From an uncultured Chloroflexia bacterium (GTDB taxonomy: Bacteria > Chloroflexota > Limnocylindria > Limnocylindrales > CSP1-4), in NCBI GenBank assembly GCA_963720315.1, contig CAVRFC010000002.1, forward strand, positions 97,990-161,989: 64,000 nt of DNA, in the 5' to 3' direction. Of the stretch, positions 3,706-20,225 are shown one piece after another (within the stretch, counting starts at the first letter, position 1; each line of letters opens with the position of its first letter). Made by a program: the position numbers and the translations under genes. A model generated the notes under the pieces. It did no database searches, was not told where the DNA came from, and saw only the letters and a program-made list of their open reading frames with translations.

Positions 3706-4962
3706 GCGCTCATCACCGGGCTCGCGGTACGGCTTGGATGGAACGACCTCCAACGTCTCGCGTTGCCACGCCTCGATCCGGCGACCAAGCAGGAGGTTGA
3801 GCCAGCCGTTCAGGAAGGCGAGGTTCACGATCACGATCGCCAGCGGCAGGCTCCCCAAGCGTGGTGGGTGACCTCCGGCGCGAAGGGCCCAGCCGACAGC
3901 GGCGAGGGCGAGGACGATGAGCCCGGCACCTACGGGCAGCAGATAGGCCGGCTGGCCGCCAAGGCCCAGAACCAGTGCGCTTGCTCCCGCGATCGCCGCC
4001 AGGATCGGCGTCCCCCAGCGGAGGATCTTGTGGGACCAGATCGCGAGGAATGCCGATGGGCGGCGCCACGGGGTCAGGCGCCCGACCATGGACAGGTTCG
4101 CGCGAATGCCCTGCGTTGCCATTCGCGCCCGACTTCGGAACTGCTCGCGCAGTTCGCCCATCGTCCGGTCCGTCGCCGTCGCATCCGGAACGGCCAGCAC
4201 GACTAGCCCTTGCTCGCGAGCTACGAGCGGGAGCTGCTGATCCATCGAGACATGCGGCGGAACCTCGCGGTACGCCGACCGGCGAATGGCAAGGATTGCG
4301 CCCGTGACGGCCGTCAGCCAGCCAGCCCGACTCTCAGCCGCGCGGACGAACTGTTCATACCGCCAGTAGGCTCCCTCGTTTCGGGCGGTTTCGGTCCGTT
4401 CCTCGTCGAGCCAGACGATCCGGCCGGTCGTGGCGCCCACCCGTCGATCCTCGAACGGGGCGAGGAGTGCCGCGAGAGAGCCTGGCCGAAACCTGGTCTC
4501 GGCGTCAGTGAGGACGACGATCTCGCCGCGGCTCGCTGCGAAGATGGCGGCCTGAGCCGCCGCCTGGCCACCGCGCGGCAGGTCGAGCAACCGGATCCTC
4601 GTGTCCTGCCGGGCGGCCGCCATCGCGACCTGTGCTGTCTCGTCTGTCGAACCGTCGGAAGCGATGATCACGTCCAGTTCGAACGGGACCTCCTGCGCGA
4701 GGACGTCCGCGATCCGATCACCAAGCTGGGTGGCCTCGTTATGGATGGCGATCCCGATCGTGACGATCGCGGGTCGGGAATCACCGGGCCGAACCCGGAA
4801 CGGCCTGACGGCGGCGACGAGCCATGCGGTCGCCGGGTAGCCGACGTAGACCCACACGAGCAGGCCCGTCGCGACCCAGAAGATCAGGGAGACCACGGCC
4901 CAAGAGTAGACCCCGAATGAGGCGAGTGTCAGCGCGGTGCCCAGGGCAGGTCCGGAAACCAT
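3400..4962 (-). CDS. GT2 glycosyltransferase flanked by TM helices (processive/cellulose-synthase-like topology). 3' end uncertain.
   Basis: ATG at complement(4960..4962): MVSGPALGTALTLASFGVYSWAVVSLIFWV... GT2 core: IVTIGIAIHNEATQLG, IIASDGSTDET, VVLTDAETRF, QxxRW-like QFRSRARMATQGIR. At least four C-terminal TM helices follow. The frame stays open to 3400, which is 300 nt antisense into the convergent GT2 gene. A tandem TGATGA at complement(3710..3715) in the adjacent frame hints at an indel near the true 3' end. Confidence 0.65.
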   Translation of the reverse strand: MVSGPALGTALTLASFGVYSWAVVSLIFWVATGLLVWVYVGYPATAWLVAAVRPFRVRPGDSRPAIVTIGIAIHNEATQLGDRIADVLAQEVPFELDVIIASDGSTDETAQVAMAAARQDTRIRLLDLPRGGQAAAQAAIFAASRGEIVVLTDAETRFRPGSLAALLAPFEDRRVGATTGRIVWLDEERTETARNEGAYWRYEQFVRAAESRAGWLTAVTGAILAIRRSAYREVPPHVSMDQQLPLVAREQGLVVLAVPDATATDRTMGELREQFRSRARMATQGIRANLSMVGRLTPWRRPSAFLAIWSHKILRWGTPILAAIAGASALVLGLGGQPAYLLPVGAGLIVLALAAVGWALRAGGHPPRLGSLPLAIVIVNLAFLNGWLNLLLGRRIEAWQRETLEVVPSKPYREPGDERSAQPGADDHPKEAIAVAERAALLRRSGRPDADRDRNLADPEAGPRRAEQQLRVMELVLGKDDLGQAVRPNRPVAVRDVGDVRPAEHIDDAGKDADPNVPGH

Positions 4963-6108
4963 CCCCGGAGCCGATCGACCAGCCGAGCCGCTTCCGCAGA
5001 TCGCGTGTGGCGCTTGGCGAAGGCCGTTCCCGACGCGCGGAGTGCGAGCGGGTCGATCCGCCCATCGAAGGGCCGCTGGACGGCGTCGGCCAGCTCGGAC
5101 GGGGCCTTCGTGTGGATCGGCACGAACAGGCCCGCACCGGCGAGCTCGGCGAGCGTGCCAACCGGCCGTGCGACGACCGGCAGGCCCACGGCCATCGCGT
5201 CGAGCACGACCTTCGGGAAATCCTTCGGAGCCGGAGGAGAGTACGAACAGGTCCGATTCGGCGAGAAGGTCCATGTAGCGGCCGCGGTCGGCGACATGAC
5301 CATGCCACGTGATGCGCGATCCGACGCCAAGCCGTTTTGCGGACGAGATCATCGCCGGCATCTCGGGACCCTCGCCGAGGACCGAGAGGCTGGCCGTGGG
5401 AAGGCGAAGTAGCGCGGCTATGACGAGATCGAGGCCCTTTCCGGGGGCGATCCGGCCGGCCCAAACGAGTTCAATGCGTTCAGCCGACACGGGCCATTGA
5501 CGGGCGGCCGGGTCCCGGATTTCGCGATCCTCGATGAGGCTCGAGACGATTCCGCCTCCGGAGAGGATGTCACGACCGACAACGATCCGATGTCGGCCGC
5601 CCGCCAACCGGCCAATGCCGTCGTACGCGGCGCCGATCGCGACGGCGGCCGTTCGATTCGCCGGGGCTCGACGCTGGCTGGCCGCAACCAATCTGGCACT
5701 CCCCGTGACATAGCCGAAGCGCGGCAGGCGGGCGGTACGGGCGAGCCAGGCGGCCAGGGCGGCATTCGACGATGGAACCCGGATCCAGACGAGATCCGCA
5801 CCAGTCAGGGCTTCCCGCAGGATCGGGGCGTTCCGGCGGAGGATTGCTGGCAAGGATCGAAGGTATCCGGCGATCCCGTCGAACGGTGTCGTGGCGACGA
5901 TTCGAAGCCGCTCGTCGACGGGCGGCCGCGTCGGCGGACCATGGGCCGGCCGGACGGGCGCGCAGAGGATGATCTCGTCGATCGCACCGCCCGGGACATC
6001 GAGCAGGGCGGCAAGGAAGATGTCGAACGTCGACGAGGCGGGGTGGACCCGGTCATGCCACGCGACGTACGGGTTGTCGTCGAGGACGGCGAGTCGGATG
6101 CCACTCAC
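4929..6108 (-). pseudogene. GT4-family (GT-B) glycosyltransferase, interrupted by a single-nt frameshift. Either a pseudogene or a sequencing indel.
   Basis: GTG at complement(6106..6108) overlaps the flippase stop (GTGA). N-terminal part in one frame: VSGIRLAVLDDNPYVAWHDRVHP...LVWAGRIAPGKGLDLVIAAL...ESDLFVLSSGSEGFP. C-terminal part in another frame: FPKVVLDAMAVGLPVVARPVGTLAELA...GWFPDLPWAPR*. The canonical E-x7-E motif (SEGFPxVVLEAMA) is split between frames at plus-strand ~5214-5222 (ccc run). Confidence 0.7.
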
Positions 6109-7469
6109 GGGGTGCGAACCCGGCGCGCGAGCCGCGCAACGAGGTCCCGCGCGGAAGCAGCTACGGCGGCAATGTCCGACCGCTTGATGAGGAGCGTCTC
6201 GGCCACGCTCAACCCGGCAACCCGCGTGAACACCGCCACGGTCAGGATCGCGGTCAGTGAGTACGAGATCGATGACGCCGCCGCCGCCCCGTTGATCCCG
6301 AATTGGGGCACGAGCGCGATGTTCGCAACGATGTTCGCCACCAGCCCGATTCCCAAGATCAATGAGCCGACGCCAGGTCGGCCGCTTCCTGTGAGATACC
6401 GCGTCAGGATCGCGACCACGCTGTACGCGACGACACCTGGCAGGATCAGCCGGAGAGCGACGCCGGCGTCGACGAACAGGGGTCCGTAGACGACCCGCAC
6501 GAAGCGCGGGCCGAGGGCGAACGCGGGGACCGCCAGGAGCATGGTGGCCGCTAGTGTCGTACGCGTAAGGATCGCAGCCGTTCGGCCGGCATCGGCGAGC
6601 GGGTCGACGGCCCGGCTGAACATCACCTGCCCGACGGCATTGGGGACGTACCACAGGGTCTCTGCCAGGCCACTCGTCACCGAGTAGACGCCCGTTGCCC
6701 GGATCCCGCTGAACAGGTTGACGAAGAACGAGTCGACGCGAAACTGCAGCCGTTCCGCGACGACGCCGGGGGCCGCGTGGAGGCCGAATCGGAATTGCTC
6801 GGCGAACAGCGGAGCAGATGGCCGGCCACCGACCAGGCCGTCCCGATGCGCCACTACCAGGACAGCCACGAGCGTCAGTCCGAGCGATGCAATATTCACT
6901 GCCAGCGCCGCCGCTAGATCCACATGGGCGACGAGGGCGATAGCCGCCAACATCGCCAACAGCGTTCCCCGCCGCGCCAGACGAAGGAAGCTGTACGCCG
7001 CGATCCGCCGCCTGCCGAGCATGGCAAACAGGCCGAACCCGAAGAGCAGCTCGCCCGGGATTGCGACCGCGGCGAAGACGAACTGGCGGTCGGAGAGGTT
7101 CGGGATGAGGTCGGCGAGCGGCCCGGTGGCGGGTCCCGCGTCCGCCACGCCGTACAACCAGAGGGAGACGAGCATCGCGGCGCCGCCGGCCACCGCGGTC
7201 CAAATGAGCGCGTTGGAGAATGCTCGCCGGCCGTCCTCCTTGTCCCTGCCGGCCATGACCGCGAGCGCCTGGTCCATTCCGAGGCCGACGAGGGTGGCGG
7301 CGATCTGTGAATACAGAAGTACGAGGGCAAAGCGGCCCTTCGCCGCCGGGCCCAGGGCTCTGGCCAGAAGGATGTCGGTCGCGAAGATCAGAACCGCCAG
7401 GCCGAACCTCGACGCGATCGTGACGGTCGTGTCCCGAAGGAGCCGCGACGAGCCGACGTGGCGTTTCAC
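6105..7469 (-). CDS. Wzx-type polysaccharide/oligosaccharide flippase (MOP superfamily, PST family).
   Basis: In-frame GTG at complement(7467..7469) (VKRHVGSSRLLRD...), 13 nt after the upstream stop. About 12-14 TM helices throughout, ending with a basic tail (ARRVRTP*). Stop overlaps the GT4 start. Confidence 0.75.
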   Translation of the reverse strand: MKRHVGSSRLLRDTTVTIASRFGLAVLIFATDILLARALGPAAKGRFALVLLYSQIAATLVGLGMDQALAVMAGRDKEDGRRAFSNALIWTAVAGGAAMLVSLWLYGVADAGPATGPLADLIPNLSDRQFVFAAVAIPGELLFGFGLFAMLGRRRIAAYSFLRLARRGTLLAMLAAIALVAHVDLAAALAVNIASLGLTLVAVLVVAHRDGLVGGRPSAPLFAEQFRFGLHAAPGVVAERLQFRVDSFFVNLFSGIRATGVYSVTSGLAETLWYVPNAVGQVMFSRAVDPLADAGRTAAILTRTTLAATMLLAVPAFALGPRFVRVVYGPLFVDAGVALRLILPGVVAYSVVAILTRYLTGSGRPGVGSLILGIGLVANIVANIALVPQFGINGAAAASSISYSLTAILTVAVFTRVAGLSVAETLLIKRSDIAAVAASARDLVARLARRVRTP

Positions 7470-7482
7470 ATCAGGCGGCAGC

Positions 7483-8511
7483 CTAGTCCGAGCCGGACAC
7501 GGCACGCGGCACGATCGCTGCCAGGTTCCGGTCGGCCAGCGCGGACTCGTACCATCGTGCCGTCCGGGCGAGACCCTCCTCGAGGCCGACGGCGGCCCGG
7601 TATCCGAGCCCGGCCGCGGCCTTGTCGACCCGGCTTACGTTCCGCCGGATGTCGCCCGCGCGATCCGGGCCGTGACGAACCTCGAGCGCCCGGCCGGCGG
7701 CTCGCCCGATCGTCTCCGCCAACTGGTTGACCGTGGTCTCACGCCCGGTGCCCGCCTGGAAGATCTCCCCGGCGACGATCCCCGCCGGCGCGTCGAGCGC
7801 CGCCACCACCGCGGCAGCGAGGTCGCCGACGTACACGAAATCACGTGTCTGCTCGCCGTCGCCGTTGATCGTGATCGGTTCGCCGGCGAGGGCGGCCCGC
7901 ATCCAGGCCGCGACCACGCTCTTCTTGTGGAGCGAGAACGGGCCGTAGGCATTCGAGAAGCGCAGGGCGCAGGCGGCCAGCCCGTACGTGGCCGCGTATG
8001 CCTGGCAGTACGCCTCGCCGGCAAGCTTCGAGGCGCCATACGGCGAGACCGGGTGGGGCAGATCCGTCTCGTCCGCCGGCGGCGGGTGGTCTCCCGCGGC
8101 GGCATTCGACGAGGCGAACACGAAGCGGCCGACGCCCGCGAGCCGGGCGGCGTCGAGCAGGCCGAGCGTCTGCGAGACATTCGCCTCGAACGTGCCGAGG
8201 GGGTCGGTGACGGAATCCGGGATCCCGGCACGGGCGGCGAGGTGGACGACGGCATCGACGCCGTCGACGGCGCTCGCGACCGCCGATCGGTCGGCCAGGG
8301 ACCCCTCGATGAGGTCGTGGGGAACGCCCGCCAGGTAGGCGCGATTGCCGATCGACAGGTTGTCGAGGACTCGGACGCGATCCTCTCGCTCGACCAGGAG
8401 CCGGGCCAGGGATGAACCGATGAACCCGGCCCCGCCGGTGATGAGGACCGTCCGGTTCAGCGCCGCTGCGCCCCGCCCGCGGGCACGCTCTCGAGGCTGT
8501 CCGGGACCCAG
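7483..8511 (-). CDS. NAD-dependent epimerase/dehydratase (UDP-sugar 4-epimerase-like SDR). Start codon uncertain.
   Basis: Rossmann motif LITGGAGFIGS, catalytic YxxxK (SPYGASKLAGE), C-terminal GDIRRNVS. There is no in-frame ATG/GTG/TTG between the SQD1 stop (8457-8459) and the GxGxxG motif. Candidate starts are CTG at complement(8509..8511) or far-upstream codons inside SQD1. Confidence 0.7.
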   Translation of the reverse strand: MGPGQPRERARGRGAAALNRTVLITGGAGFIGSSLARLLVEREDRVRVLDNLSIGNRAYLAGVPHDLIEGSLADRSAVASAVDGVDAVVHLAARAGIPDSVTDPLGTFEANVSQTLGLLDAARLAGVGRFVFASSNAAAGDHPPPADETDLPHPVSPYGASKLAGEAYCQAYAATYGLAACALRFSNAYGPFSLHKKSVVAAWMRAALAGEPITINGDGEQTRDFVYVGDLAAAVVAALDAPAGIVAGEIFQAGTGRETTVNQLAETIGRAAGRALEVRHGPDRAGDIRRNVSRVDKAAAGLGYRAAVGLEEGLARTARWYESALADRNLAAIVPRAVSGSD

Positions 8512-9656
8512 CGGATGTTCTGGACGAAGGTGGTCGGGTCGATCCGGTCGCGCTGATCGGCGATCTTGACGAGCATCGTGTCGATCAGCTCCTCGTTGAG
8601 CAGCCGCGGCTGCAGCCCGAGATCGAGGAGCTTCGAGTGCTGGGCGTTGTAGTAATGCTCTTCCATCTCCTTGCGGGGATTCGGGGTGTGCTCGAGCCCG
8701 ACGTCCCAGCCGAGGTGCTTGCCGGCCGTCTTGACCCGCTCCGCCAGCTCGAGGACGCTGAACTGCTCGGTGAACTGGTTGTAGACGCGTAGTTCGCCCG
8801 GTCCGGCGGGGTTGGCGGCCGCCAGCGAGACGCACTGGATCGTGTCGCGGATGTTGAGGTAGCCGCGGGTCTGGCCGCCCTTGCCGTAGACCGTGAGCGG
8901 GAAGCCGATGACCGCCTGGACGCAGAACCGGTTGAGGGCAGTCCCGAACACCTCGTCGTAATGGAAGCTCGTCGCGAGGCGTGGATCCAGCGCCGACTCG
9001 TCGGTCTCGACACCGTAGACGACGCCCTGGTTGAGGTCGGTCGCCCGGAGGCCCCAGATCCGTGTCGCGAAGTGGATGTTGTGCGAGTCGTGGACCTTCG
9101 AGAGGTGATACATCGAGCCCGGCGTCTTCGGGTAGAGGAACGTGTGCGACCGGCCCTTGTGATCGACGGTCAGGTAGCCCTCCTCGATGTCGATGTCGGG
9201 TGTCCCGTACTCACCCATCGTCCCAAGCTTGACCAGGTGGGTGTCGGGCGATCGGTCGCGAATGGCGAACAGGACATTGAGGTTGCCGATGACGTTGTTC
9301 GACTGCGTGTACGTCGCGGTCCGGACGTCGATCATCGAGTAGGGAGCCGAGGGCTGCTCCCCGTAGTGCACGACGGTATCCGGGCGGAAGTCGTCGATGA
9401 CGGATTCGACGAACGCGTAGTCGGTCAGGTCCCCGACATGGAGCTCGATCTCGTTCTCGGTCACCTCGCGCCAGGCCCGGACGCGCTCGTGCAGGGTCGG
9501 GACGTGGAAGAGGGGCCGGACGCCCAGTTCGAGCTCCCACTGGCGCTTGGCGAAGTTGTCCACGACGGCCACTCGATGGCCCGCCCTTGAGAACGCCATC
9601 GCCGTCGGCCAGCCGAGATAGCCGTCACCGCCGAGCACGAGGATTCGCTGAGCCAC
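8457..9656 (-). CDS. sqdB: UDP-sulfoquinovose synthase (SQD1/SqdB).
   Basis: GTG start with GGAGGG SD 9 nt upstream. Near-continuous similarity to plant SQD1 and cyanobacterial SqdB: RILVLGGDGYLGW, VVHYGEQPSAPYSMID, NNVIGNLNVLFAI, LVKLGTMGEYGTP, YHLSKVHDSHNIHF, ATDLNQGVVYGV, AVIGFPLTVYGKGGQTRGYLNIRDT, FTEQFSV, VPNPRKEMEEHYYNA. Confidence 0.9.
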   Translation of the reverse strand: MAQRILVLGGDGYLGWPTAMAFSRAGHRVAVVDNFAKRQWELELGVRPLFHVPTLHERVRAWREVTENEIELHVGDLTDYAFVESVIDDFRPDTVVHYGEQPSAPYSMIDVRTATYTQSNNVIGNLNVLFAIRDRSPDTHLVKLGTMGEYGTPDIDIEEGYLTVDHKGRSHTFLYPKTPGSMYHLSKVHDSHNIHFATRIWGLRATDLNQGVVYGVETDESALDPRLATSFHYDEVFGTALNRFCVQAVIGFPLTVYGKGGQTRGYLNIRDTIQCVSLAAANPAGPGELRVYNQFTEQFSVLELAERVKTAGKHLGWDVGLEHTPNPRKEMEEHYYNAQHSKLLDLGLQPRLLNEELIDTMLVKIADQRDRIDPTTFVQNIRWVPDSLESVPAGGAQRR

Positions 9657-9790
9657 GTCCTGTTGCCCTCCAGAGGTTCGCCTTGGTGGGACCCCTCGTC
9701 CCGGCCTTCGGGGATCGGCCGGAGTCTACCATCGGACCGCGGGCCGCGGACGTCAGGATGCCCGGCCCGCCCGGTGGTACGCTCGCCCCG

Positions 9791-11257
9791 ATGCTCCTCC
9801 GTCAGTTCGTGATCGACGGTCTCGGCCATCTCTCGACGCTCATCGCCGACGAGTCGGCCGGGCTCGCAGCCGTCGTCGATCCCCGCCGCGACGTCGACAT
9901 CTACCTCGAGGCCGCCCGCTCAGCGGACCTGCGCATCACGTACGTTGTCGAGACGCATCTCCACAACGATTACGTCTCGGGCGCTCGCGATCTGGCGACC
10001 TTGACCGGCGCGACCCACGTCATCGGGGCCGGCGCCGATCTCGCCTACGAGCACCGGCCGATCCGCGACCGCGAGTCGTTCGACGTGGGTGCCCTCCGCT
10101 TCACGGCCCTCGAGACCCCCGGCCACACGCCCGAGCACGTCGCCTACGCCGTCGCCGACACGTCCCGAGCGGGGGAGCCGCTTCTCCTGTTCACCGGCGG
10201 GTCCCTGCTCGTCGGTGCAGTTGGCCGGACCGACCTCCTCGGCGAGGACAATGCGCTGCCGTACGCAGCCTCCATGTTCCACTCGATCCGGGAGGTGATC
10301 CTGCCGCACGAGGACTTCGTGGGGGTCTACCCGACGCACGGCGCAGGCTCCCTCTGCTCGACCGGCATCGCCTCGACGCCATGGTCGACGATCGGCTTCG
10401 AGCGGCGCCACAACCCGATGGTCCAGCCCGCCGACGTGGACGGCTTTGCCCGGCTCCTGCTCCGGGATCAGCCGGCCTTTCCGCGCTACTTCGCGCGGAT
10501 GCGCCCAACGAACCAGGCTGGCCCGCGGCTGCTCGGCGGCGGTCCGCCGGAGCCCCGGCCGATGGCGGTCGAGGATGCTCGCTCCGCCCTGGACAAGGAC
10601 GCCGTGCTCGTCGACCTCCGATCGCCGGCGGCCCATTCGATGGCCCACGTTCCGGGGTCCGTGTCGATCCCGTCAGGGTCGTCGTTCGGAACGTGGCTCG
10701 GCTGGGTGGTGGAGCCTGATCGGCCGCTCGTCCTGATGCTCGACTCGCCGGCAGACTGGGACGACGCGGCCCGCCAGGCGATACGCGTCGGCTACGAGAA
10801 TCTGCTCGGCCACGTCCGCGGCGGCTTCGCGACCTGGACGGAATCTGGCGCTCCGGTCGAGTCGGGCGGCCGCCTCACGGTCGATCAGCTCGCGTCGCGC
10901 CTCGACCGGGGCGGCCCGGAGGCGCCACTCGTCGTCGACGTCCGCCAGGTAACCGAGTACGCCGCAGGGCACGTGCCGGCCGCCCTGCATGTCGCGGCGG
11001 GCCTCCTCCAGGACCGGCTCGAGGACCTGCCACGGGACCGGCCGATCGCGACGATCTGCGCGTCCGGCTATCGGTCGAGCGTGGCCGCATCGCTGCTGCG
11101 GGCCGCCGGCTTCAGCGATGTCAGCTGGGTCGCCGATGGGCTCCCGGCATGGCGCGCTCATGGTCACCCGGTCGAACGCGGGGTGGGTTCCGCGCCCGTG
11201 TCCTCGCCTGAACCGGAGACCCACGCGGCCGCCGCCGGGCACCGGCACCCCGCGTAA
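9791..11257 (+). CDS. MBL-fold metallo-hydrolase fused to two rhodanese domains (persulfide-dioxygenase-like CstB/Blh architecture).
   Basis: ATG 9791 (MLLRQFVIDGLGH...). MBL motifs THLHNDYVSG and ETPGHTPEH. First rhodanese domain lacks the catalytic Cys. Second rhodanese domain has the active-site loop ICASGYRSS. The in-frame ATG at 9758 is an alternative start. Confidence 0.75.
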   Translation: MLLRQFVIDGLGHLSTLIADESAGLAAVVDPRRDVDIYLEAARSADLRITYVVETHLHNDYVSGARDLATLTGATHVIGAGADLAYEHRPIRDRESFDVGALRFTALETPGHTPEHVAYAVADTSRAGEPLLLFTGGSLLVGAVGRTDLLGEDNALPYAASMFHSIREVILPHEDFVGVYPTHGAGSLCSTGIASTPWSTIGFERRHNPMVQPADVDGFARLLLRDQPAFPRYFARMRPTNQAGPRLLGGGPPEPRPMAVEDARSALDKDAVLVDLRSPAAHSMAHVPGSVSIPSGSSFGTWLGWVVEPDRPLVLMLDSPADWDDAARQAIRVGYENLLGHVRGGFATWTESGAPVESGGRLTVDQLASRLDRGGPEAPLVVDVRQVTEYAAGHVPAALHVAAGLLQDRLEDLPRDRPIATICASGYRSSVAASLLRAAGFSDVSWVADGLPAWRAHGHPVERGVGSAPVSSPEPETHAAAAGHRHPA

Positions 11258-11401
11258 GGCGCCTCCGAAGGACTTCCGTACGGATCGCGCCGGGGTCGAA
11301 GGCTCGTGTACCCTTGGCCACGCGGAGTCACGATCCCAGGCGGCTCTCGCCACGATTCCCAGGAGTCCAGGCCACACGCGCGCGGTCGCGGACGCCAATC
11401 G

Positions 11402-14245
11402 ATGGAGGAAGCAGTGCTTCGACCGCCACGCCGCCACACGCGATCGCTCCTCGGCATGTTCGCCGTGGTTGTCAGCCTCGGACTCATCTGGCCCGCGGGC
11501 ATCTCGGCCGGAGGCGCCACGACCACCGCCGGGGCATCGATCCCTGCCGCGCGCTCCGAGCGCACGCCGACGGTGCGCGGCCAGGGCGCCAAGCCGCTCG
11601 ACGCCGGACGTGGCAACGGTCCCGCCAAACCGCTCCAGAAGCCCAGCGTCGACGCTGCGAACAGGAAGAGCGCGTCGTCCTCGCCCAGCGCGTCGGCTCC
11701 GGACGGTGGCGCGGGCACGACAGGCGTTGCCGCGGTCCCCGACCTCGTCACCAACTCCGGCGCGCCCGCGGCGACCTCGTTCGGCCCGTGGGAGGGCCTG
11801 AACCAGACGGCCTCCGGCTTCGAGCCGCCCGACCCCTGGGTCGCGGTTGGTCCGGACGACGTCGTCCAGACCGTCAATAACAGGCTCCGCTTCACGAACC
11901 GCGAAGGGACCTTGACCGCAGCCGACCTCGGGACCTTCGAGTTCTTCGACCTCGGCGATTTCGAGATCGCGAACTCGCCCGTCACGATCGACGGCGTCAG
12001 CGACCCGCGCTGGGTGTACGACACCAAGCACAACCGATGGCTTGGCACGACGACGGGCTGGCATTGCGACGACGATGGCGCCGGCGACGGCGACGATGCA
12101 ATCGGTTTCGTGTTCGGTGCGATCAGCACGAGCGCCGACCCGACGGGCGACTACTACCACTTCTATGTCCTGTACACGGGGTACCTCCCCCACGAGCCGA
12201 CGATCGGTACGTCCGGCGACAAGTTCACGATCGGCGTCAACGAGCACGTCATGACGAACGCAGCGTCCAACTGCGCAGATGGGATCCCCTTCGACGCCGG
12301 CAGCCTGACGACCTTCGACTGGGCGAACATGCTGGCCTTTCCGGCTCTGCCCGACTTCACCTACGACTTCAATTTCGACATGTTCGCGCCGCGGCCCGCG
12401 GTTTCCCCGCAGGGCCTCTCGAACACGATCTTCGTCGTCAGCGAGCACGTAATCGCGTCGGCAACCGAATCGAACGTCCTGTATATGCGTATCACAGGCA
12501 CCAACGCCGGCGGCGGCACCGTGCTCTCACCGCCGCTCGATCTGACCAACCTCAACATCGTCGCCAGCTTTGTGGACCCGCCCGATCCAGAGGATCCGGG
12601 AGGCACCATCGTCGACGCCGTCGATCGCCGCCCGACCGACGCCATCTGGCAGGACAACGTCCTGACGTTCGCCTCGACCTTCCCGTGCGTCGCGCCGATT
12701 GGCACCGGCCGGGACTGCGCCCGCGTCACGCAGCTCAGCACTTCCACGGCGACGCCGTCGCTCGTCCAGGACATGCTCATCGGGACGACCGGCACCGACA
12801 CGTGGCAGCCGGGAATCGGCCAGTCCCAAAGCGGCATCCTCCACGTCGTCTACACCCGGTCGTCGGCGTCCGAGGGAATGTCCTCCTACAACCGCTATCA
12901 GCTCCCCTCTGACGCCGTCAATGAGCTGAGCGCGGCTCGCGAGATCGCTAACGGCGGGGCCGTCGCGTACACCGGCACCGACTGGGGCAACTACGTCGGG
13001 GTCGCTCAGGATCCGCGCGATACGAACGCGGTCTGGCAGGGCAATCAGTACACGAGGTCCAATGGCACCTGGGGAACCCGCGTGAGCGAGCTCCAGACTG
13101 CCGGCTCGACGTTCGTCGGCATCGCGCCGGTCCGGCTGCTCGACTCCCGCTTCAACATCGGGACAACAGGGCCGTTCACGGCGAGCGTCCCCAAGAGCGT
13201 CGACATCGCCGGCCGCGGCGGAATTCCGAACGATGCCGTCGCCATCACGGGCAATCTGACGATCGTCGGACAGCAGCAGGCGGGCTACGCCTCGCTTACG
13301 CCGCTCCCGAACGCGAACCCGGCGACATCAACGATCAACTTCCCGCTCGGCGACAACCGGGCCAACAACGTAACGAGCCCGCTCAGCAACGCCGGCGGCG
13401 TCAGCCTCACCTACAAGGCCGCGGCTGGCAAGCAGACCCACTTCATCCTCGACGTTACGGGCTACTTCCTGAACGACGACTCCGGCCAGACCTATAACGT
13501 CCTGACCCCGCTTCGCGTCCTGGACACGCGGTTCGATGTCGGGCTTACCAACGCGTTCCAGGCCAACGCGAACCGGACATTCCAGGTTGCCGGCGTGGGC
13601 GCCATTCCGGCCAACGCCAAGGCGATCACCGGCAACCTGACGGTCGCCAACCAGACCGGCGGAGGTTTCGTCACGCTCGCCACGAACCCGCCGCCGGCCA
13701 ATCCCGCCACGTCGACGATCAATTTCCCCGTCGGCGACGTCCGGGCGAACGGCGTGACGGTCAAGCTCTCGGGCACTGGGACCCTGTCGGCCGTGTACAA
13801 AGCCCCGCCCGGCAGAACGACCCATCTGATCCTCGATGTCACGGGGTACTACCTCGACAACCTCAACGGCGCACGCTTCGTGGCCGTCGCGCCGGGTCGG
13901 CGTATGGACACGCGGTTCCCGGCTCCGCAGGAGGGACTGACCGGCGCGTTCAGCGCCAACAACGCCAGGACGCTGGTCATTGAGCCGTACCAGGGCGTCC
14001 CCGCGAACGCAACGGCGATCACCGGCAACTTGACCGTTGTCGGCCAGACCCGTGCCGGGTTTGTGTCAATGACACCCGTCGCTGACGACACTCCGGATAC
14101 GTCCACATTGAACTTCCCGCTCGGCGACGTCCGGGCGAACGGCGTCACTGGCCCGATGAGCGGCGCCGGCAGCGTCGGGATCGTCTACAAGGCCTCGGGT
14201 GGGCTGACCCACCTGATCCTCGATATCACCGGCTACTTCCGCTGA
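11402..14245 (+). CDS. Large secreted protein: signal peptide, ~550-aa domain of unknown function, then three tandem ~125-aa repeats.
   Basis: ATG 11402 (MEEAVLRPPRRHTRSLLGMFAVVVSLGLIWPAGISAGG, an h-region followed by an A-x-A-like cleavage site). Ser/Ala/Gly-rich linker. The C-terminus has three repeats sharing RxLDTRF...AxAITGNLTVxxQTxxGFxxxTP...P.TSTxNFPxGDxRANxVT...HxILDxTGYF. Confidence 0.7.
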   Translation: MEEAVLRPPRRHTRSLLGMFAVVVSLGLIWPAGISAGGATTTAGASIPAARSERTPTVRGQGAKPLDAGRGNGPAKPLQKPSVDAANRKSASSSPSASAPDGGAGTTGVAAVPDLVTNSGAPAATSFGPWEGLNQTASGFEPPDPWVAVGPDDVVQTVNNRLRFTNREGTLTAADLGTFEFFDLGDFEIANSPVTIDGVSDPRWVYDTKHNRWLGTTTGWHCDDDGAGDGDDAIGFVFGAISTSADPTGDYYHFYVLYTGYLPHEPTIGTSGDKFTIGVNEHVMTNAASNCADGIPFDAGSLTTFDWANMLAFPALPDFTYDFNFDMFAPRPAVSPQGLSNTIFVVSEHVIASATESNVLYMRITGTNAGGGTVLSPPLDLTNLNIVASFVDPPDPEDPGGTIVDAVDRRPTDAIWQDNVLTFASTFPCVAPIGTGRDCARVTQLSTSTATPSLVQDMLIGTTGTDTWQPGIGQSQSGILHVVYTRSSASEGMSSYNRYQLPSDAVNELSAAREIANGGAVAYTGTDWGNYVGVAQDPRDTNAVWQGNQYTRSNGTWGTRVSELQTAGSTFVGIAPVRLLDSRFNIGTTGPFTASVPKSVDIAGRGGIPNDAVAITGNLTIVGQQQAGYASLTPLPNANPATSTINFPLGDNRANNVTSPLSNAGGVSLTYKAAAGKQTHFILDVTGYFLNDDSGQTYNVLTPLRVLDTRFDVGLTNAFQANANRTFQVAGVGAIPANAKAITGNLTVANQTGGGFVTLATNPPPANPATSTINFPVGDVRANGVTVKLSGTGTLSAVYKAPPGRTTHLILDVTGYYLDNLNGARFVAVAPGRRMDTRFPAPQEGLTGAFSANNARTLVIEPYQGVPANATAITGNLTVVGQTRAGFVSMTPVADDTPDTSTLNFPLGDVRANGVTGPMSGAGSVGIVYKASGGLTHLILDITGYFR
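13105..14242 (+). repeat. Three in-frame tandem repeats (~375-384 nt each) encoding the C-terminal repeat domain of the secreted protein.
   Basis: Repeat units at about 13105-13487, 13488-13870 and 13871-14242. Conserved blocks include ctggacacgcggttc, atcaccggcaacctgac and ggcgacgtccgggcgaacggcgtcac. Confidence 0.7.
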
Positions 14246-14361: not shown

Positions 14362-16890
14362 GTGAGCGCGTACGTCCGATCTCGTTCCACGGCCTCCCCG
14401 CTGGAGGCCGGCTTGCGCGCGCGATCGGCTCCGGCCGTGTTCCGGGAGCTCGTTCGCGGTCTCACGGGCGAACCGCCGATCCCATTGCGCGGCGGACCGC
14501 CGGCGACGGTCGTCGTCGCCGTCCTCATCGGCCTGTATGCGGCCGCCCTTGCCGCCTTCGGCCCGGTGGCCTCGGAGGTCCTCGCAGCGCCGACGTTCAT
14601 CGCGGCGGTCATCCTGTCCGGGCCGCTCGCGGCAGTAGCCTGGCTGGCCAGCCTCGCGGTCACGATCGCGATCGTTCCCTTCGCCGAGCTGTCACGCACC
14701 GGCAACGGCTTCGATGCACCCTTCGTGCTCGCATCCGCCATGGTCCTGCGAACCATCGTCGTAGCGGCCGTATCGACCCGCACCGGCCATCTCCAGCGTG
14801 AGGCGACGCTGGCCGTCCGCCTCGACAGTGTGCTCGAGATCGCCGAGCGGTTGGCCACCACGCACGACCGGGCCGCGCTCCTCCGCGCGATCGTCGACGA
14901 AACGCACCGCGGGATCGGAGCCGACGCGACGGTCCTGAGGCTCGTCCACGAGGACCGCCTCGAGGTCGTCGCCTGGGCGGGCATGGATGACGCAACGGCC
15001 GCCCGCCTCCCGGTCTTCAGCCAGGGTGAGAGCTGGTTCGGCGAGATCTCCCGGAGCGGTCAGCCGTGGGTCGTCGACGACTCGCGCCACGCAGCGGTCG
15101 CGCCAGTTTACGACCGCTACACGGGCGTTTTCGAGTTCCGCGGCGACATCATCGTGCCGCTCAGCCACGAGGGAAAGGTCATCGGCTCGCTGTCGGCCGT
15201 GACCGTCGAGCCACGCAACTGGGAGCCGGCCGACGTGGCCTTCGTCATGGCTCTCGGGACGCACGCCGCGATCGCCCTCGAGAACGCCGATCTGATTGCG
15301 CAGACCCAGCAGCGGGCCGCCCACCTGGGCGTGCTCCAGGCGGCATCGGCGCGCCTCAGCCGGGCGAGCGGCATCGAAGCCGTCGGCCGGGCGATCGTCG
15401 AGGAGACCCGCCAGATCATCGACTACCACAACGCCCGGGTCTACGTACTCGAGCCGCGGGGCGATGTGGTCCCGATCGCCTTCGCGGGCGTGGTCGGCGC
15501 CTACGAGAAGGTCGACTTCGCGCTGCTTCGCTGCCAGCTCGGGCAGGGTTTCACGGGCTGGGTGGCCCAGCATGGCATCCCGCTCCTCATCAACGACGCG
15601 AACCTCGACCCGCGCGGTGCCAACATCCCGGGGACCGACGACGTCGACGAGTCGATGCTCGTCGTGCCGATGAGCTACGACGGCAACGTCGTCGGGGTGA
15701 TCACCCTGTCGAAGCTCGGCCTCAACCAGTTCGACGAGGACGACCAGCGCCTGCTGCTCATCCTGGCCGACCAGGCGGCGACGGCCCTCGAGTCGGCCCG
15801 CCTGCTCGCTCGCAGCGAGGGGCTCGCCGGGGAGCTGCGGCGCCTGCTGGACATGAGCGGCCAGCTGTCGGCCAGCCTCGAGTCGCGCCAGGTTGCGAAC
15901 ATCATCGCCCGGCATGTCGCGAGTGCCCTCGCGGTCGACGAGTGCGCGATCTCGTACCTGGACGTAGCCAATCAGAGGCTGGCGACGCTCGGCTGGTTCC
16001 CGGAGAAGCTGGAGGCGGACCTGACACCATATTTCGAGGTCGGCGCCTTCCCCCAGACGTTCCGAGTGCTCGAGGAGCAGACGACCGTCATCGTCGACGT
16101 CGAAGATCCAGCCGCCGATCCGGCCGAAACTGCCCTCCTGCTTTCGCAGGGTTATCGGTCCCTGGTCATGCTGCCCCTCGTCGCCAAGGGCCAGTCGATC
16201 GGCCTCGTCGAGCTCATGTCGTTCGGGCTGATCGACCTCGACGTCGAGCAGCTCGAGCTCGCCCGGACGATGGCGAACGAGGCGGCAATGGCGCTCGAGA
16301 ACGCCCGGCTCTACGAGGAGGCGCGGGCCCTTGCCGACCGCGATCAGCTGACCGGCTTCTACAACCACCGCTTCTTCCACGAGCGATTCGGCGAGGAGGT
16401 CCTCCGCGCCCAGCGGTCGCGCCAGCCGCTAAGCGTTCTCATGCTCGACCTCGACGATTTCAAGCTCGTCAACGACACCTTCGGCCACCTGTTCGGTGAC
16501 CAGGTGCTGGCCTGGACGGCCGAGCTGATCCGGTCGACGTTGCGGGAGTCGGATTTCGCCGCTCGCTACGGCGGAGACGAATTCGCGATCCTCATGCCCG
16601 ACACCACGGCCGTCGCCGCGGCGCGAGCGGCCGAGCGGATCCGCGAGGCGTTCGCGAGTTCCGCCTTCGAAGGTGGCACGCGCCGGCCGGTGGCGATCTC
16701 GCTGGCCGTCGGCGCCGCAACGTTCCCGGCCGATGGCCGAACCGCGACCGAGCTCATCGCCGTGGCAGACGCAGCACTGTACGCGGAGAAGCGGCGCGAG
16801 GCCCTGGCCGTGTCGCCCGCCACGGCACGCAAACGGCGCAGGATCGGACCGAGGCCGGACGCGCCGCCCAGCGAGGCAATGTCCGCCTGA
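14362..16890 (+). CDS. Membrane-anchored multi-GAF diguanylate cyclase (GGDEF).
   Basis: N-terminal TM helices (VVVAVLIGLYAAALAAF..., LAVTIAIVPF), then three GAF-like regions. GGDEF domain with LTGFYNHRFF, MLDLDDFKLVND, catalytic RYGGDEFAIL and YAEKRR. Confidence 0.85.
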   Translation: MSAYVRSRSTASPLEAGLRARSAPAVFRELVRGLTGEPPIPLRGGPPATVVVAVLIGLYAAALAAFGPVASEVLAAPTFIAAVILSGPLAAVAWLASLAVTIAIVPFAELSRTGNGFDAPFVLASAMVLRTIVVAAVSTRTGHLQREATLAVRLDSVLEIAERLATTHDRAALLRAIVDETHRGIGADATVLRLVHEDRLEVVAWAGMDDATAARLPVFSQGESWFGEISRSGQPWVVDDSRHAAVAPVYDRYTGVFEFRGDIIVPLSHEGKVIGSLSAVTVEPRNWEPADVAFVMALGTHAAIALENADLIAQTQQRAAHLGVLQAASARLSRASGIEAVGRAIVEETRQIIDYHNARVYVLEPRGDVVPIAFAGVVGAYEKVDFALLRCQLGQGFTGWVAQHGIPLLINDANLDPRGANIPGTDDVDESMLVVPMSYDGNVVGVITLSKLGLNQFDEDDQRLLLILADQAATALESARLLARSEGLAGELRRLLDMSGQLSASLESRQVANIIARHVASALAVDECAISYLDVANQRLATLGWFPEKLEADLTPYFEVGAFPQTFRVLEEQTTVIVDVEDPAADPAETALLLSQGYRSLVMLPLVAKGQSIGLVELMSFGLIDLDVEQLELARTMANEAAMALENARLYEEARALADRDQLTGFYNHRFFHERFGEEVLRAQRSRQPLSVLMLDLDDFKLVNDTFGHLFGDQVLAWTAELIRSTLRESDFAARYGGDEFAILMPDTTAVAAARAAERIREAFASSAFEGGTRRPVAISLAVGAATFPADGRTATELIAVADAALYAEKRREALAVSPATARKRRRIGPRPDAPPSEAMSA

Positions 16891-16996
16891 GGCCCGGCCG
16901 CAGCCGGTAGTACGGAAGTACCAGTCGGTTCCACTGCTAGTACTACGGATTGGTCTGGACGCGAAGGCCACCGGACCGTCATGCTGAGTCCCGAAC

Positions 16997-18208
16997 GTGT
17001 CAGGACCCACCACGCGCAAATCGGCCGGGGACGCGGAGGATCGCAGGATCCGCCGGTCGTGGCTGGTCCTCTCGGGATCGCTGTTCATCCTCGCCCTGGC
17101 CGCGCTGCTGCGCGTGACGGTCGACGGCGCTCGGCCGCTCGACTGGCTGATGGTCGGGGTCGTCCTCGTGGTCGCCTTCGTCGCGGTCCGGCATCGGATG
17201 GCCGTCGGGGCGCTCGAGACCAGCCGACGCGGTGAAGCGGAGAGCTTCGCCCGGATCCTCCAGGGGCTGTCACGCTCGATCTCACCGGACGCGATCGTGG
17301 ATGCGATCGTGGAAGAGATCGGGTCGGGGACCGGGGCCGACCACATCGTCGTCGCTCGCCGCCGGCCCGACGCTCGCGTCCTCGAGGCGACGCTCGTCAA
17401 CACCCGGACCGGCGGTCCGAGCTCCACGACGCTCTTCCCGATCTCCGACCTCGAGGACCCGCCCGAACTGGACCGTGCCCGGGTCATCGACCCGGCAGTT
17501 CTCGTCGCCCGGCGGATCGCCGCCCGCGCGCGGCGGATCTACGGCCTCAAGCACACCCTGTCGGCACCGCTGACCACCGATGCCGGCGTCATCGGCGCGA
17601 TCGTGGCCTCGCGTCGGACGGCAGAGGCATGGCCCGAATCGGCCCAGCGGATCCTCACCGGTGCCGCCATCGAGGCCTCCGCGGCCCTCTCGCGGGCGTA
17701 CTCGCATCGAGAGGCCGAGGCACGCGCCTCGACGGATGCCCTCACCGGGCTCCCGAACCGGCGCTACTTCGACGAGTTCTGCGCGTTGCTCGCGCGCCGC
17801 CGTCGGTCGCAGGACGCGATCGGAATCCTGATGGTCGATATCGACCGATTCAAGCTGCTGAACGACGCCCATGGGCATGCCGTCGGCGACGAGGTGCTGC
17901 GGGCGGTCGCCGGGGCGATCGCCGGCGCCGTCCGTGAGGACGACGTCCCGGCCCGGTTCGGCGGCGAAGAGTTCGCCGTCCTGCTCCGCAACCCGCACAT
18001 CGACGAGGCCGTCGAGGTCGGCGAGCGCATTCGGATGGCCGTTTCGTCGCTCGACCTGTCGAGGTACGGCGTCCAGTCGGCGAGTGTCTCGGTCGGCGTC
18101 GCGGTGGCGACTCTTCCCCAACAGCCGATCGCCGAGGTCATCGAACAGGCTGATCGCGCCCTGTACGACGCGAAGCGCCGAGGTCGCGACCGGGTCGTCG
18201 CGGCGTAG
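16997..18208 (+). CDS. Membrane GAF-GGDEF diguanylate cyclase.
   Basis: TM helices (LVLSGSLFILALAALL, LMVGVVLVVAFVAV), then a GAF-like region. GGDEF domain with LTGLPNRRYF, MVDIDRFKLLND, catalytic RFGGEEFAVLL and YDAKRRGR. Confidence 0.8.
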   Translation: MSGPTTRKSAGDAEDRRIRRSWLVLSGSLFILALAALLRVTVDGARPLDWLMVGVVLVVAFVAVRHRMAVGALETSRRGEAESFARILQGLSRSISPDAIVDAIVEEIGSGTGADHIVVARRRPDARVLEATLVNTRTGGPSSTTLFPISDLEDPPELDRARVIDPAVLVARRIAARARRIYGLKHTLSAPLTTDAGVIGAIVASRRTAEAWPESAQRILTGAAIEASAALSRAYSHREAEARASTDALTGLPNRRYFDEFCALLARRRRSQDAIGILMVDIDRFKLLNDAHGHAVGDEVLRAVAGAIAGAVREDDVPARFGGEEFAVLLRNPHIDEAVEVGERIRMAVSSLDLSRYGVQSASVSVGVAVATLPQQPIAEVIEQADRALYDAKRRGRDRVVAA

Positions 18209-18254
18209 CGCCCACGAAGCCCGCACCGTCGCCTGACGCCTGCGTGGGTGGCGC

Positions 18255-20225
18255 ATGGAGGGAATCGGGCCTTGGTCGGGTAGCATCGGCCGAGTGACGA
18301 AGGAACGCGAACCTGACGACAAATCGACGATCGACGACGAGCCCGACCACGACAGGGACACCGACGTCGACGACGCAAACATCGCTGCCGACGACGATGC
18401 ATCCGCCGATGGCGAGCTGACCAACGGCAGCCTGGCCCGGATCTTCCACGAGATCGGCGACATGCTCGAGGTCAAGGGCGAACTCGTCTTCAAGACCGTT
18501 GCCTACCACCGGGCCGCCGACGCGATCGGGCGCAGTCCGGTCGACCTCGTCGCGGCCTACCGCTCGGGGACGCCGCCAAAGGTGCCTGGGGTCGGCCAGG
18601 CGATCAGCGACAAGATCGCCGAGCTGGTCACAACCGGCCGGATGCGGTTCTACGACACGCTGCGCGCGGAGATCCCGCCGAGCCTCGTCGGCATGCTCCA
18701 GATCCCGGGCCTCGGGCCGAAGACCGTCAAGCAGATCTACGAGGAGCTCGGCATCGAGACGCTGGAGGATCTTCGCCAGGCGGCCGAGGCCGGGACCCTC
18801 AAGTCGCTCAAGGGCCTGTCGGCGAAGACCGAGAGCCTCATCCTCGCCGGGATCACGGCCCTCGAGTCGCGCCCCAAACGCCTGCTCCTCAATCGGGCGG
18901 AGGACGCGATCGACGGGATCGCCGGAGCGATCCTCGCCGCCCCCGGCGTGACCCGCGTCGAGCCCGCCGGCTCATTCCGGCGGAAGAAGGAGACGATCGG
19001 CGACCTCGACCTGCTCGTCGAGACGTCCGAGCCGAAGGCCGTGATGGACCGCTTCCTCGGACTCGGCGCCGTCGACGCTGTGATCGGCAAGGGCGACCAC
19101 AAGAGCGCCGTCCGACTCCTGCGCGGCCCGCAGGTTGACCTCATGGCGATGGCGCCGGGCGAGGCCGGGCCGTACCTCGTCCACTTCACCGGCTCGAAGG
19201 AGCACAACGTCCGGCTCCGCGCCCGCGCCCGGGACCGCGGCTGGAGCCTGTCCGAGTACGGCTTCATCCGGATCGGCGAGGACGGCGAGCCGCTGACGGG
19301 CGATGCCGCCGAGCGACGGACCTTCGCGACCGAGGAAGAGACGTATGCCTTCCTCGACTTGCCGTTCATCGAGCCCGAACTTCGTGAGAACGAGGGCGAG
19401 ATCGAGGCGGCCTTGACGGGCACCCTGCCGACCCTCATCACCCAGGCCGACCTGCGCGGCGACTGCCACACCCACTCGGAATGGAGCGATGGCGCCCACG
19501 CCATCGAGACGATGGCCGAGGCCTGCCGCCGGCGCGGCTACGCCTACGAGGTCCTGACCGACCACTCGTTCTCGCTCGCGATCGCTCGTGGCCTCGCTCC
19601 GGACCGCGTCGAGCAGCAACGGACGATCATCGCCGAGCTGAATGCCCGCTTCGAGCAGGAGGAGCGCGACGGGATGGCGCCGCCGGAGACACCGCCGGAG
19701 GGCTTCCGCCTCCTCCACGGCTGCGAGCTCGAAGTCCGGGCGGACGGCGTCCTCGACTACGACGAAGATCTCTTATCGCGCTTCGACCTGGTCGTTGCCT
19801 CGGTCCATGTGTCCCGCCGCCAGCCTCGCGCGGAGTTGACCCGCCGGACGCTCAACGCGATCCGCAGCCCGCACGTCGACATCATCGCCCACCCCTCCGG
19901 TCGAATGATCCAGACCCGGGACGATCTCGACCTCGACTGGGAATCCATCTACGCGGCGGCGGCCGCGACGGGAACCGCCCTCGAGATGAATGGCTCGCCG
20001 CACCGGCTCGACCTATCGGTGGAGCGTGCCCGTCGGGCGGTCGAGGCCGGCTGCGTCCTCACGATCGACTCCGACGCGCATAGCACCAGCGAGCTCGATT
20101 ACATTCGCTGGGGCGTCACCCAGGCTCGGCGGGCGTGGGTCGAGCCGCGATCCGTCCTCAATACGAGGTCCCGCGCCGAACTCCTGGCGTGGGTGGCCGG
20201 GGCGCCAGCCCGGTCGACGGCCTGA
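18255..20225 (+). CDS. polX: Family X DNA polymerase (PolX) with C-terminal PHP phosphoesterase domain.
   Basis: Acidic N-terminal tail. HhH motifs (IPGLGPKTVKQIYEELGI). Pol-beta-like palm (ETIGDLDLLVE, GSFRRKKETIGDLD) and SEYGF. PHP domain (DCHTHSEWSDG, DHSFSL, VHVSRR, TIDSDAHS). Confidence 0.85.
   Translation: MEGIGPWSGSIGRVTKEREPDDKSTIDDEPDHDRDTDVDDANIAADDDASADGELTNGSLARIFHEIGDMLEVKGELVFKTVAYHRAADAIGRSPVDLVAAYRSGTPPKVPGVGQAISDKIAELVTTGRMRFYDTLRAEIPPSLVGMLQIPGLGPKTVKQIYEELGIETLEDLRQAAEAGTLKSLKGLSAKTESLILAGITALESRPKRLLLNRAEDAIDGIAGAILAAPGVTRVEPAGSFRRKKETIGDLDLLVETSEPKAVMDRFLGLGAVDAVIGKGDHKSAVRLLRGPQVDLMAMAPGEAGPYLVHFTGSKEHNVRLRARARDRGWSLSEYGFIRIGEDGEPLTGDAAERRTFATEEETYAFLDLPFIEPELRENEGEIEAALTGTLPTLITQADLRGDCHTHSEWSDGAHAIETMAEACRRRGYAYEVLTDHSFSLAIARGLAPDRVEQQRTIIAELNARFEQEERDGMAPPETPPEGFRLLHGCELEVRADGVLDYDEDLLSRFDLVVASVHVSRRQPRAELTRRTLNAIRSPHVDIIAHPSGRMIQTRDDLDLDWESIYAAAAATGTALEMNGSPHRLDLSVERARRAVEAGCVLTIDSDAHSTSELDYIRWGVTQARRAWVEPRSVLNTRSRAELLAWVAGAPARSTA

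Follow-up and report, generated by a model that had tools for sequence, protein, structure and literature searches.

The in vivo source of the sulfite used by UDP-sulfoquinovose synthase (SQD1) is debated for plants. Among enzymes that join a persulfide dioxygenase (PDO) domain to rhodanese, two described systems differ in what they release. In CstB, two persulfides yield thiosulfate “without the release of sulfite,” the S-sulfonate on Cys201 being handed to a persulfidated Cys408, a design that its authors suggest avoids free sulfite (PMC12934615), whereas the two-domain PRF of Burkholderia phytofirmans (BpPRF) turns thiosulfate and a thiol into persulfide and sulfite and then oxidizes the persulfide to sulfite (PMC9163753). 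Here we analyze a locus in which a relative of CstB adjoins an SQD1 gene. It lies in a 64,000-nucleotide stretch of a soil metagenome-assembled genome from an uncultured Chloroflexia bacterium (contig CAVRFC010000002.1, positions 97,990–161,989; G+C ~69%), hereafter “the window,” whose SQD1 protein is 99% identical to that of a Microflora Danica metagenome-assembled genome of the Limnocylindria (Chloroflexota; L001). As the original prediction made from this DNA had it, two genes diverge from a common spacer: SQD1 (8457–9656, minus strand) and a gene for a metallo-beta-lactamase (MBL)–rhodanese protein (9791–11257, plus strand).

The original prediction further held that the architecture of the MBL–rhodanese protein marks a sulfite producer, that the two genes are co-regulated and that sulfite is channeled into sulfoquinovose. 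We favor a different reading, to which we assign a probability of about 55%: the protein is a housekeeping sulfane-sulfur enzyme of a Gly-for-Asp subfamily of CstB, and it stands beside a variable sulfoquinovose locus through inherited synteny. A link between this enzyme and the sulfite supply of SQD1 is unlikely. The argument from architecture falls away because CstB, the architectural model, releases thiosulfate and no sulfite; as CstB makes thiosulfate and BpPRF makes sulfite, the architecture does not tell whether the window protein makes sulfite. Channeling of sulfite into sulfoquinovose is pure conjecture.

The CstB-like protein and its metal site

The CstB-like gene encodes 488 aa (its stop codon included at 11257) with a PDO-like MBL domain (residues ~1–250), a pseudo-rhodanese domain (~258–350) and a catalytic rhodanese domain (~363–456), matching Pfam Lactamase_B and two stretches of Rhodanese. 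In the middle domain an Asp replaces the catalytic Cys (“LMLDSPADW”), hence a pseudo-rhodanese, and the last domain carries the active-site loop C423-A-S-G-Y-R428-S (11057–11077, plus strand), which aligns with the C408 loop of CstB (“CQSGIRS”). The predicted order of MBL, inactive rhodanese and active rhodanese with a CASGYRS loop is thereby confirmed. Cys423 and the equivalents of CstB R370 and R413 (R385 and R428) are kept in every full-length Limnocylindria copy that was scored.

The protein had been likened to both CstB and Blh, and only the first comparison stands. Full-length alignments with the solved structures 3tp9 and 3r2u make it, by homology, of the CstB-type and not the Blh-type architecture. 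Blh was rejected on a score of 34 bits against NF040641 (cut-off 625), with the MBL motif falling at profile positions 187–233; the dioxygenase is therefore not N-terminal in Blh, and the domain order differs. Glyoxalase II was rejected as well, as the site-2 His is Tyr61, the bridging Asp is Gly137 and the TIGR03413 score is 63 bits against a cut-off of 201. In source annotations, those of JGI among them, such proteins go under the name “hydroxyacylglutathione hydrolase” or that of “MBL fold metallo-hydrolase.” Nor is the protein a canonical ETHE1-type PDO: Tyr61, Gly137 and His13 stand at diagnostic positions, and the PDO-domain match to 4ysb and 4chl is 50–71 bits. A Thr13–Asp–water network has been described for canonical PDOs (PMC12934615).

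The reading frame is open from TTG 9587, and the conserved N-terminus begins at ATG 9791. Starts at TTG 9587 and ATG 9758 were rejected, since homologues and PDB relatives all begin at the 9791 Met (“MLLRQF/MYLRRF/MFFKQF”) and a conserved −10 element lies 7 nt before it. At the other end, the C-terminal tail (11180–11254, plus strand) is poorly conserved, but many close homologues (P0001–P0109) finish with a patch rich in His (GHRH, GHHH, DHEH); this tail may bind metal.

The iron ligands of CstB are H56, H119 and D145, a 2-His-1-Asp facial triad (PMC12934615). The original prediction had named a lack of PDO iron-binding residues as grounds for refutation, and a check of these positions counts against it: two ligands are kept in the window protein (H56 and H112), and the third is Gly137. 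The first His belongs to the motif H56-L-H58-N59-D60-Y61 (HLHNDY; 9956–9973, plus strand), in which H56 aligns with CstB H56. This motif had been considered atypical, but F or Y after HxHxD dominates among 123 full-length representatives of the family, and both Staphylococcus aureus CstB and 3tp9 read “HIHADF.” It is the third ligand that departs from CstB: the segment “LFTGGSLLVGA,” which contains Gly136-Gly137 (10196–10201, plus strand), aligns without gaps with CstB “LFSGDFIFVGD,” and the Asp ligand is missing. None of the 28 Limnocylindria copies (61–96% identical) has the Asp; 27 have Gly, and one (L055) reads Ala-Ala.

The substitution reaches beyond the class. We searched 1.84 billion representatives, obtained 1,385 matches at E ≤ 1e-30 and aligned 123 full-length representatives, which divide into 40 with Gly (“Gly-type”) and 83 with Asp (“Asp-type”). 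The Gly-type proteins form one contiguous block of the tree (all trees here are neighbor-joining trees on simple distances), and further positions change along with the ligand. Specifically, position 12 is Gly in the Gly-type and mostly Ala or Ser in the Asp-type; position 13 is N, D or H in all Gly-type proteins (N or D in 26/40) and H, Q, C, I or A in the Asp-type (N or D in 0/83); position 59 is Asn in the Gly-type (34/40 vs. 0/83) and Ala or Glu in the Asp-type; position 140 is L, M or I as opposed to Phe; and position 182 is Thr as opposed to Ala or Gly. The loop that bears the self-S-sulfonated cysteine of CstB differs too. Its equivalent here, Cys189 (10355–10357, plus strand), is followed by Ser and not Gly, “HGAGSLCS” aligning with CstB “HGAGSPCG” (C201-G202), and Cys-Gly occurs in 14/40 Gly-type compared with 82/83 Asp-type representatives. 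Cluster-member names of the Gly-type representatives are uninformative, mostly “hydroxyacylglutathione hydrolase,” and one comes from Actinomycetota.

Loss of the 2-His-1-Asp triad might mean that the PDO-like domain is catalytically dead, in which case the protein would be no more than a sulfurtransferase of the rhodanese type, a persulfide carrier or a 3-His Zn hydrolase, with no oxygenase chemistry and so no oxidized sulfur made from persulfide. The near-uniform Gly137, with the Ala-Ala copy equally devoid of Asp, is what this view expects, and Tyr61 together with Gly137 excludes a binuclear glyoxalase-II site as well. Yet H56, H58, D60, H112, H183, Cys189, Cys423 and both steering arginines are conserved throughout the Limnocylindria copies and the Gly-type clade. 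Conservation this strict of the His residues, D60 and Cys189 argues for a working metal site, and the protein looks functional, its metal site remodelled and not decayed. A substitute ligand is also plausible at position 13, the second-shell Q13 of CstB, given its restriction to N, D or H. We regard a dead domain as unlikely.

Genomic context bears on the same question. One Gly-type gene of another lineage (L085, 7001–8395) lies in a compact sulfur cluster with genes for a sulfite-oxidase-type Mo enzyme, a cupredoxin, Sulf_transp (YeeE-like), DUF6691, a TsdA-like cytochrome, TauE, a rhodanese and two LysR-type regulators; the sulfite oxidase, TauE and TsdA genes speak against a dead domain. 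Another (L086) neighbors an ArsR/HTH_5 regulator, DUF302 and a rhodanese. The contexts in L084, L167 and L168 are unrelated, with GlcDEF-like and cysteine desulfurase-like genes in L167 and Usp genes in L168, and the latter two, which lack oxidative sulfur genes, fit a protein confined to sulfur transfer. L085 would offer a good system for learning the product of a Gly-type enzyme. The literature we searched held no biochemical study of this clade, which comprises about one third of the aligned CstB-like representatives and all Limnocylindria copies and is a concrete target for groups working on the CstB mechanism.

A bolder proposal, which we rate as improbable, is that the Gly-for-Asp clade has rebuilt its mononuclear center, either as a 3-His site (H56/H58/H112) or as one completed by the N, D or H at position 13; that it would release free sulfite instead of passing on an S-sulfonate to make thiosulfate; and that it was recruited beside SQD1 in one Limnocylindria lineage, where sulfur from persulfide or thiosulfate would pass straight into sulfoquinovose and bypass assimilatory sulfate reduction. 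A 3-His center would resemble that of thiol dioxygenases such as cysteine dioxygenase.

The spacer and the history of the pairing

The spacer has the divergent arrangement that had been predicted, with a length of 134 bp (9657–9790) in place of 135, and it holds two separate predicted promoters back to back. In an alignment of 28 orthologous spacers (79–249 bp), only both −10 elements and the SQD1 Shine–Dalgarno sequence are conserved, and no palindrome or other shared element or operator is conserved across the 28. A generic scan for sigma-70 promoters and terminators found nothing, the promoters emerging only from this alignment, and an Rfam scan of the spacer at E ≤ 1 gave no match. On the SQD1 side, a putative promoter with the extended −10 element TGGTAGACT (9723–9731, minus strand) lies ~75 nt upstream of the GTG start, and the Shine–Dalgarno sequence is GGAGG (9671–9667, minus strand). 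Among Limnocylindria SQD1 loci, the consensus TG(C/G)TAGACT occurs at −58 to −122 in 20/27 of those that are paired and in 17/33 of those that are not. On the opposite side, the extended −10 element TGGTACGCT (9775–9783, plus strand) ends 7 nt before ATG 9791, and nearly all of the 28 orthologues have TGnTAnnnT at a distance of 6–8 nt from the cstB-like start codon, L018 among them, although SQD1 is 7.9 kb away there. Because the −10 element ends so close to the ATG, the cstB-like mRNA is probably leaderless. We infer two independent extended −10 promoters. The predicted co-regulation is at odds with two separate −10 elements, the lack of a shared operator or an Rfam match, and an SQD1 −10 element that occurs without a CstB-like neighbor too.

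How far the pairing extends was judged from 80 species-level genomes centered on SQD1, which gave ~58 SQD1 loci from Limnocylindria and 19 from other phyla (Acidobacteriota, Solirubrobacterales, Alphaproteobacteria, Anaerolinea) and for which gene calls were heuristic (GC3-based) and assemblies contain frameshifts. A divergent cstB-like gene lies 80–250 bp from SQD1 in 30 of the ~58 Limnocylindria loci. The expected conservation in related genomes thus holds within limits: the pairing recurs, but the SQD1 tree places all 30 loci in a single derived clade (~11 members of which are unpaired), and it is absent from basal Limnocylindria, where SQD1 has other conserved upstream neighbors, and from the other phyla, where no PDO or rhodanese was found within 10 kb of SQD1 in the 19 loci. 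A relaxed tblastn search of all SQD1 loci (E ≤ 1e-3; queries CstB, 3tp9 and Myxococcus PDO) added nothing beyond L018. In two cases (L018; L020/L081) other glycan genes are inserted between the pair. Unpaired SQD1 genes have as neighbors GGDEF, PolX, MgtE-N/CBS, Nramp, MOSC, GT2, a secreted protein (cluster c14), UDP-glucose dehydrogenase-like and Bac_transf genes; a sulfite source sought among them was not found, MOSC having only a loose sulfur link.

Viewed from the other gene, the pairing is the lesser part. In a CstB-centered sample of 80 metagenome contigs, short and ranked by similarity to the query, 63 had usable upstream sequence, and 11/63 were paired with SQD1 as against 52/63 that were not (~20% vs. 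~80%). The commonest 5′ neighbor is a co-directional FabG gene (20/50 contigs), and on many metagenome contigs fabG abuts the cstB-like gene directly. The 3′ flank is constant, either GGDEF/PolX or MOSC/Nramp/MgtE, and the 5′ side varies among relatives between the SQD1 operon, a LytR/Bac_transf/Wzy cluster, a PqqD/GT2 cluster or fabG itself. In the CstB-like tree, copies beside SQD1 are interspersed with copies beside fabG. Four loci (L023, L032, L033, L046) have a lone SQD1 (~10001–11200) between the cstB-like gene and a fabG-fabF-fabZ-accC-accB-accA-accD cluster. This lineage is without the epimerase, flippase and glycosyltransferases, and its SQD1 or CstB-like clade takes in L027 and L127 as well. 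Most simply, the sequence between the cstB-like flank and the fab/acc lipid cluster is an insertion or deletion, made up of SQD1 by itself, of SQD1 and its operon, or of another glycan cluster such as that of L083.

Across 26 pairs, distances between SQD1 proteins are correlated with those between CstB-like proteins (r = 0.75; 0/2000 permutations). This correlation indicates that the pairing arose once, was inherited vertically and was lost repeatedly; recruitment of SQD1 to the side of the cstB-like gene on several independent occasions was rejected, since the distances of both proteins co-vary.

In the reading of the original prediction, the CstB-like protein might be a dedicated sulfite generator for SQD1. 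It would oxidize persulfide, or split thiosulfate on Cys423 and then oxidize the resulting persulfide. Its altered site (no Asp, Cys-Ser) would free sulfite in place of thiosulfate, SQD1 would add this sulfite to UDP-4-keto-glucose-5-ene, and divergent promoters would permit joint control. Several observations favor such a role and weigh against inherited synteny as a full account. The pairing is found in about half of the Limnocylindria SQD1 loci, co-inherited over deep divergence, and the junction persists where CstB-like proteins have diverged by as much as 42% in amino-acid sequence, even as the gene on that protein's other side changed several times (BIG979, GGDEF, Nramp, MOSC). One lineage keeps SQD1 beside the cstB-like gene though the rest of the operon is gone, so that a two-gene unit is retained in L023, L027, L032, L033 and L046. 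The Gly-type differs from the thiosulfate-only CstB at the very loop residue that mimics glutathione, and the sulfite oxidase and TauE genes flanking the L085 relative fit a sulfite-releasing variant. Rhodanese domains can, moreover, work in the direction that turns thiosulfate into sulfite, and BpPRF is an example (PMC9163753).

Other evidence points the opposite way. No shared operator was found in the spacer, and the promoter motif of SQD1 occurs irrespective of the neighbor; most SQD1 operons (among them those of basal Limnocylindria and of all other phyla) lack a PDO or rhodanese neighbor; ~80% of orthologous cstB-like genes adjoin fabG or other genes and not SQD1; the junction has been broken repeatedly, in two cases by insertions that part the promoters; the characterized CstB frees no sulfite; and one Fe ligand is missing. 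We hold a dedicated sulfite generator to be unlikely. If it were true, this would be the first enzyme dedicated to delivering sulfite for the synthesis of sulfoquinovose, and in the Limnocylindria, an abundant class in soil, the detoxification of reactive sulfur would be tied to the making of sulfolipids or sulfoglycans.

In our preferred reading of inherited synteny, two functionally independent units would stand back to back. The first, an operon of SQD1, epimerase, flippase, GT4 and GT2 genes, would build a sulfoquinovose glycolipid or surface glycan and have an extended −10 promoter to itself, its mRNA carrying a leader of ~65–70 nt and a Shine–Dalgarno sequence. The second would be a stand-alone, probably leaderless gene for the PDO-like/pseudo-rhodanese/rhodanese protein, which keeps Cys189, Cys423 and the arginines presumed to steer anionic sulfur species, and whose remodelled metal site, with Gly for the Asp ligand, would be left with H56, H58 and H112. 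Its job would be general sulfane-sulfur handling: persulfide or thiosulfate sulfur would be loaded on Cys423 and Cys189 and then oxidized in a metal- and O2-dependent step, the same job as may be done by Gly-type relatives beside sulfite oxidase, TauE, TsdA, YeeE-like and ArsR-type genes. The cstB-like gene would thus be a conserved flank between the PolX/GGDEF or MgtE/Nramp/MOSC block and the fab/acc cluster. Gene identities, residues, promoter motifs and the spread of the pairing are observed here; the enzymatic activity, its product, the leaderless mRNA and the lack of functional coupling are what we infer from sequence and synteny.

Directly downstream of the cstB-like gene lies a 979-aa open reading frame (BIG979; 11306–14245, plus strand) with no Pfam match and with three internal repeats of ~110 aa, “NFPLGD(V/N)RANxVT...LILDVTGY”; it is present only in the closest relatives (L001–L005, L083, L087, L155). 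Two GAF-GGDEF diguanylate cyclase genes and then a PolX/PHP DNA polymerase gene follow (14362–20225, plus strand), a block that keeps its synteny with the cstB-like gene in a large part of the class.

The sulfoquinovose operon

The SQD1 gene, of the SQD1/SqdB type and first in its operon, encodes 399 aa from a GTG start. Its product aligns with Arabidopsis SQD1 (PDB 1qrr) over 382 residues without gaps (514 bits, 57.6% identity), matches Pfam Epimerase and has the N-terminal NAD-binding Gly motif “GGDGYLGW.” In Arabidopsis numbering, Thr145, Tyr182 and Lys186, along with His183, have catalytic roles in SQD1, and T145/Y182/H183/K186 are all identical in the window protein (T146, Y183, H184, K187). 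The NCBIfam model UDPsulfquin_syn (NF041015) is the top model by a wide margin at 458 bits, below its equivalog cut-off of 575, which we read as a strict cut-off and not as non-membership, the match to plant SQD1 being stronger. The predicted identity thus holds: judged by this full-length match and the catalytic residues kept, the window protein is a genuine UDP-sulfoquinovose synthase.

The second gene (7483–8460, minus strand) encodes a NAD-dependent sugar epimerase/dehydratase (Pfam Epimerase, 221 bits) and comes after SQD1 in most Limnocylindria loci. None of ATG, GTG and TTG is available as its start codon. The junction with SQD1 (8457–8460, minus strand), GCGCTGAACCG, is kept in L001–L007, and because it is conserved in these closest relatives, a CTG that overlaps the SQD1 TGA stop is the probable start; in more distant relatives the epimerase starts with GTG or ATG a few bases downstream. 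A Wzx-like polysaccharide flippase of the Polysacc_synt family (6105–7505, minus strand), kept downstream of the SQD1–epimerase pair, is followed by a GT4 glycosyltransferase (about 4929–6104, minus strand) and a GT2 glycosyltransferase (3400–about 4920, minus strand; Pfam Glycos_transf_2); these correspond to clusters c8 and c4, both kept downstream in relatives. The GT4 gene has a frameshift near 5200–5330, with Glycos_transf_1 matches on both halves, and is split either by a long-read indel error or as a pseudogene.

This order of SQD1, epimerase, flippase and glycosyltransferase genes repeats in most Limnocylindria loci. From this gene set we predict that the operon makes a sulfoquinovose-containing glycolipid or an exported surface glycan. 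No sulfate-assimilation or sulfite genes were found within the 64-kb window, and a literature search for work on UDP-sulfoquinovose synthase in connection with rhodanese or PDO, or on sulfoquinovose in Limnocylindria, returned no relevant paper. Elsewhere in the window, a class I/II aminotransferase gene is split in two (51127–51642 and 51752–52291, minus strand; profile positions 4–164 and 211–346), probably by a frameshift or as a pseudogene.

Comparison with known systems

As in sqdB–sqdX loci, glycosyltransferase genes follow SQD1 here. Compared with Arabidopsis SQD1, bacterial SqdB and archaeal Agl3, the operon adds an epimerase and a Wzx-like flippase, and these two genes point to an exported glycan or glycolipid instead of, or besides, plain SQDG (the sulfoquinovosyl diacylglycerol membrane lipid). 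At the level of the whole locus, the arrangement recalls O-antigen clusters between galF and gnd, with variable glycan genes beside a conserved flank.

The CstB-like protein shares an MBL-fold PDO core and His ligands with BpPRF (5ve3–5), ETHE1 (4chl) and Myxococcus PDO (4ysb), and BpPRF likewise has a C-terminal rhodanese. These enzymes are nevertheless far more distant (43–71 bits for the PDO domain) and have one or two domains, not three; they carry HxHxDH, the Asp ligand, Thr13 and a glutathione pocket where CstB has its Cys loop. The best solved relative is 3tp9 of Alicyclobacillus acidocaldarius (290 bits, E = 2e-85, ~38% identity, residues 1–462 aligned), a “beta-lactamase and rhodanese domain protein” from structural genomics, a molecule name by which the depositors assign no function; we know of no functional study of it. 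It has the same three domains and H13, but unlike the window protein it keeps the Asp ligand (“FSGDFVFVGD”) and Cys-Gly.

The closest characterized system remains S. aureus CstB (PDB 3r2u; 185 bits, E = 2e-53, ~31% identity), residues 1–450 of the window protein aligning with residues 25–459 of the structure in the same domain order. The genetic settings differ: S. aureus CstB belongs to a cstR/cstA/sqr/tauE operon, whereas the window gene is monocistronic and probably leaderless, and no persulfide sensor, SQR, CstA or TauE was found in the window or the Limnocylindria loci. The proteins themselves differ in D145 to Gly, Cys-Gly to Cys-Ser, Q13 to His and A59 to Asn. They have in common an aromatic residue instead of the last His of HxHxDH, as well as H56, H58, D60, the second His ligand, the C201 and C408 equivalents and both steering arginines.

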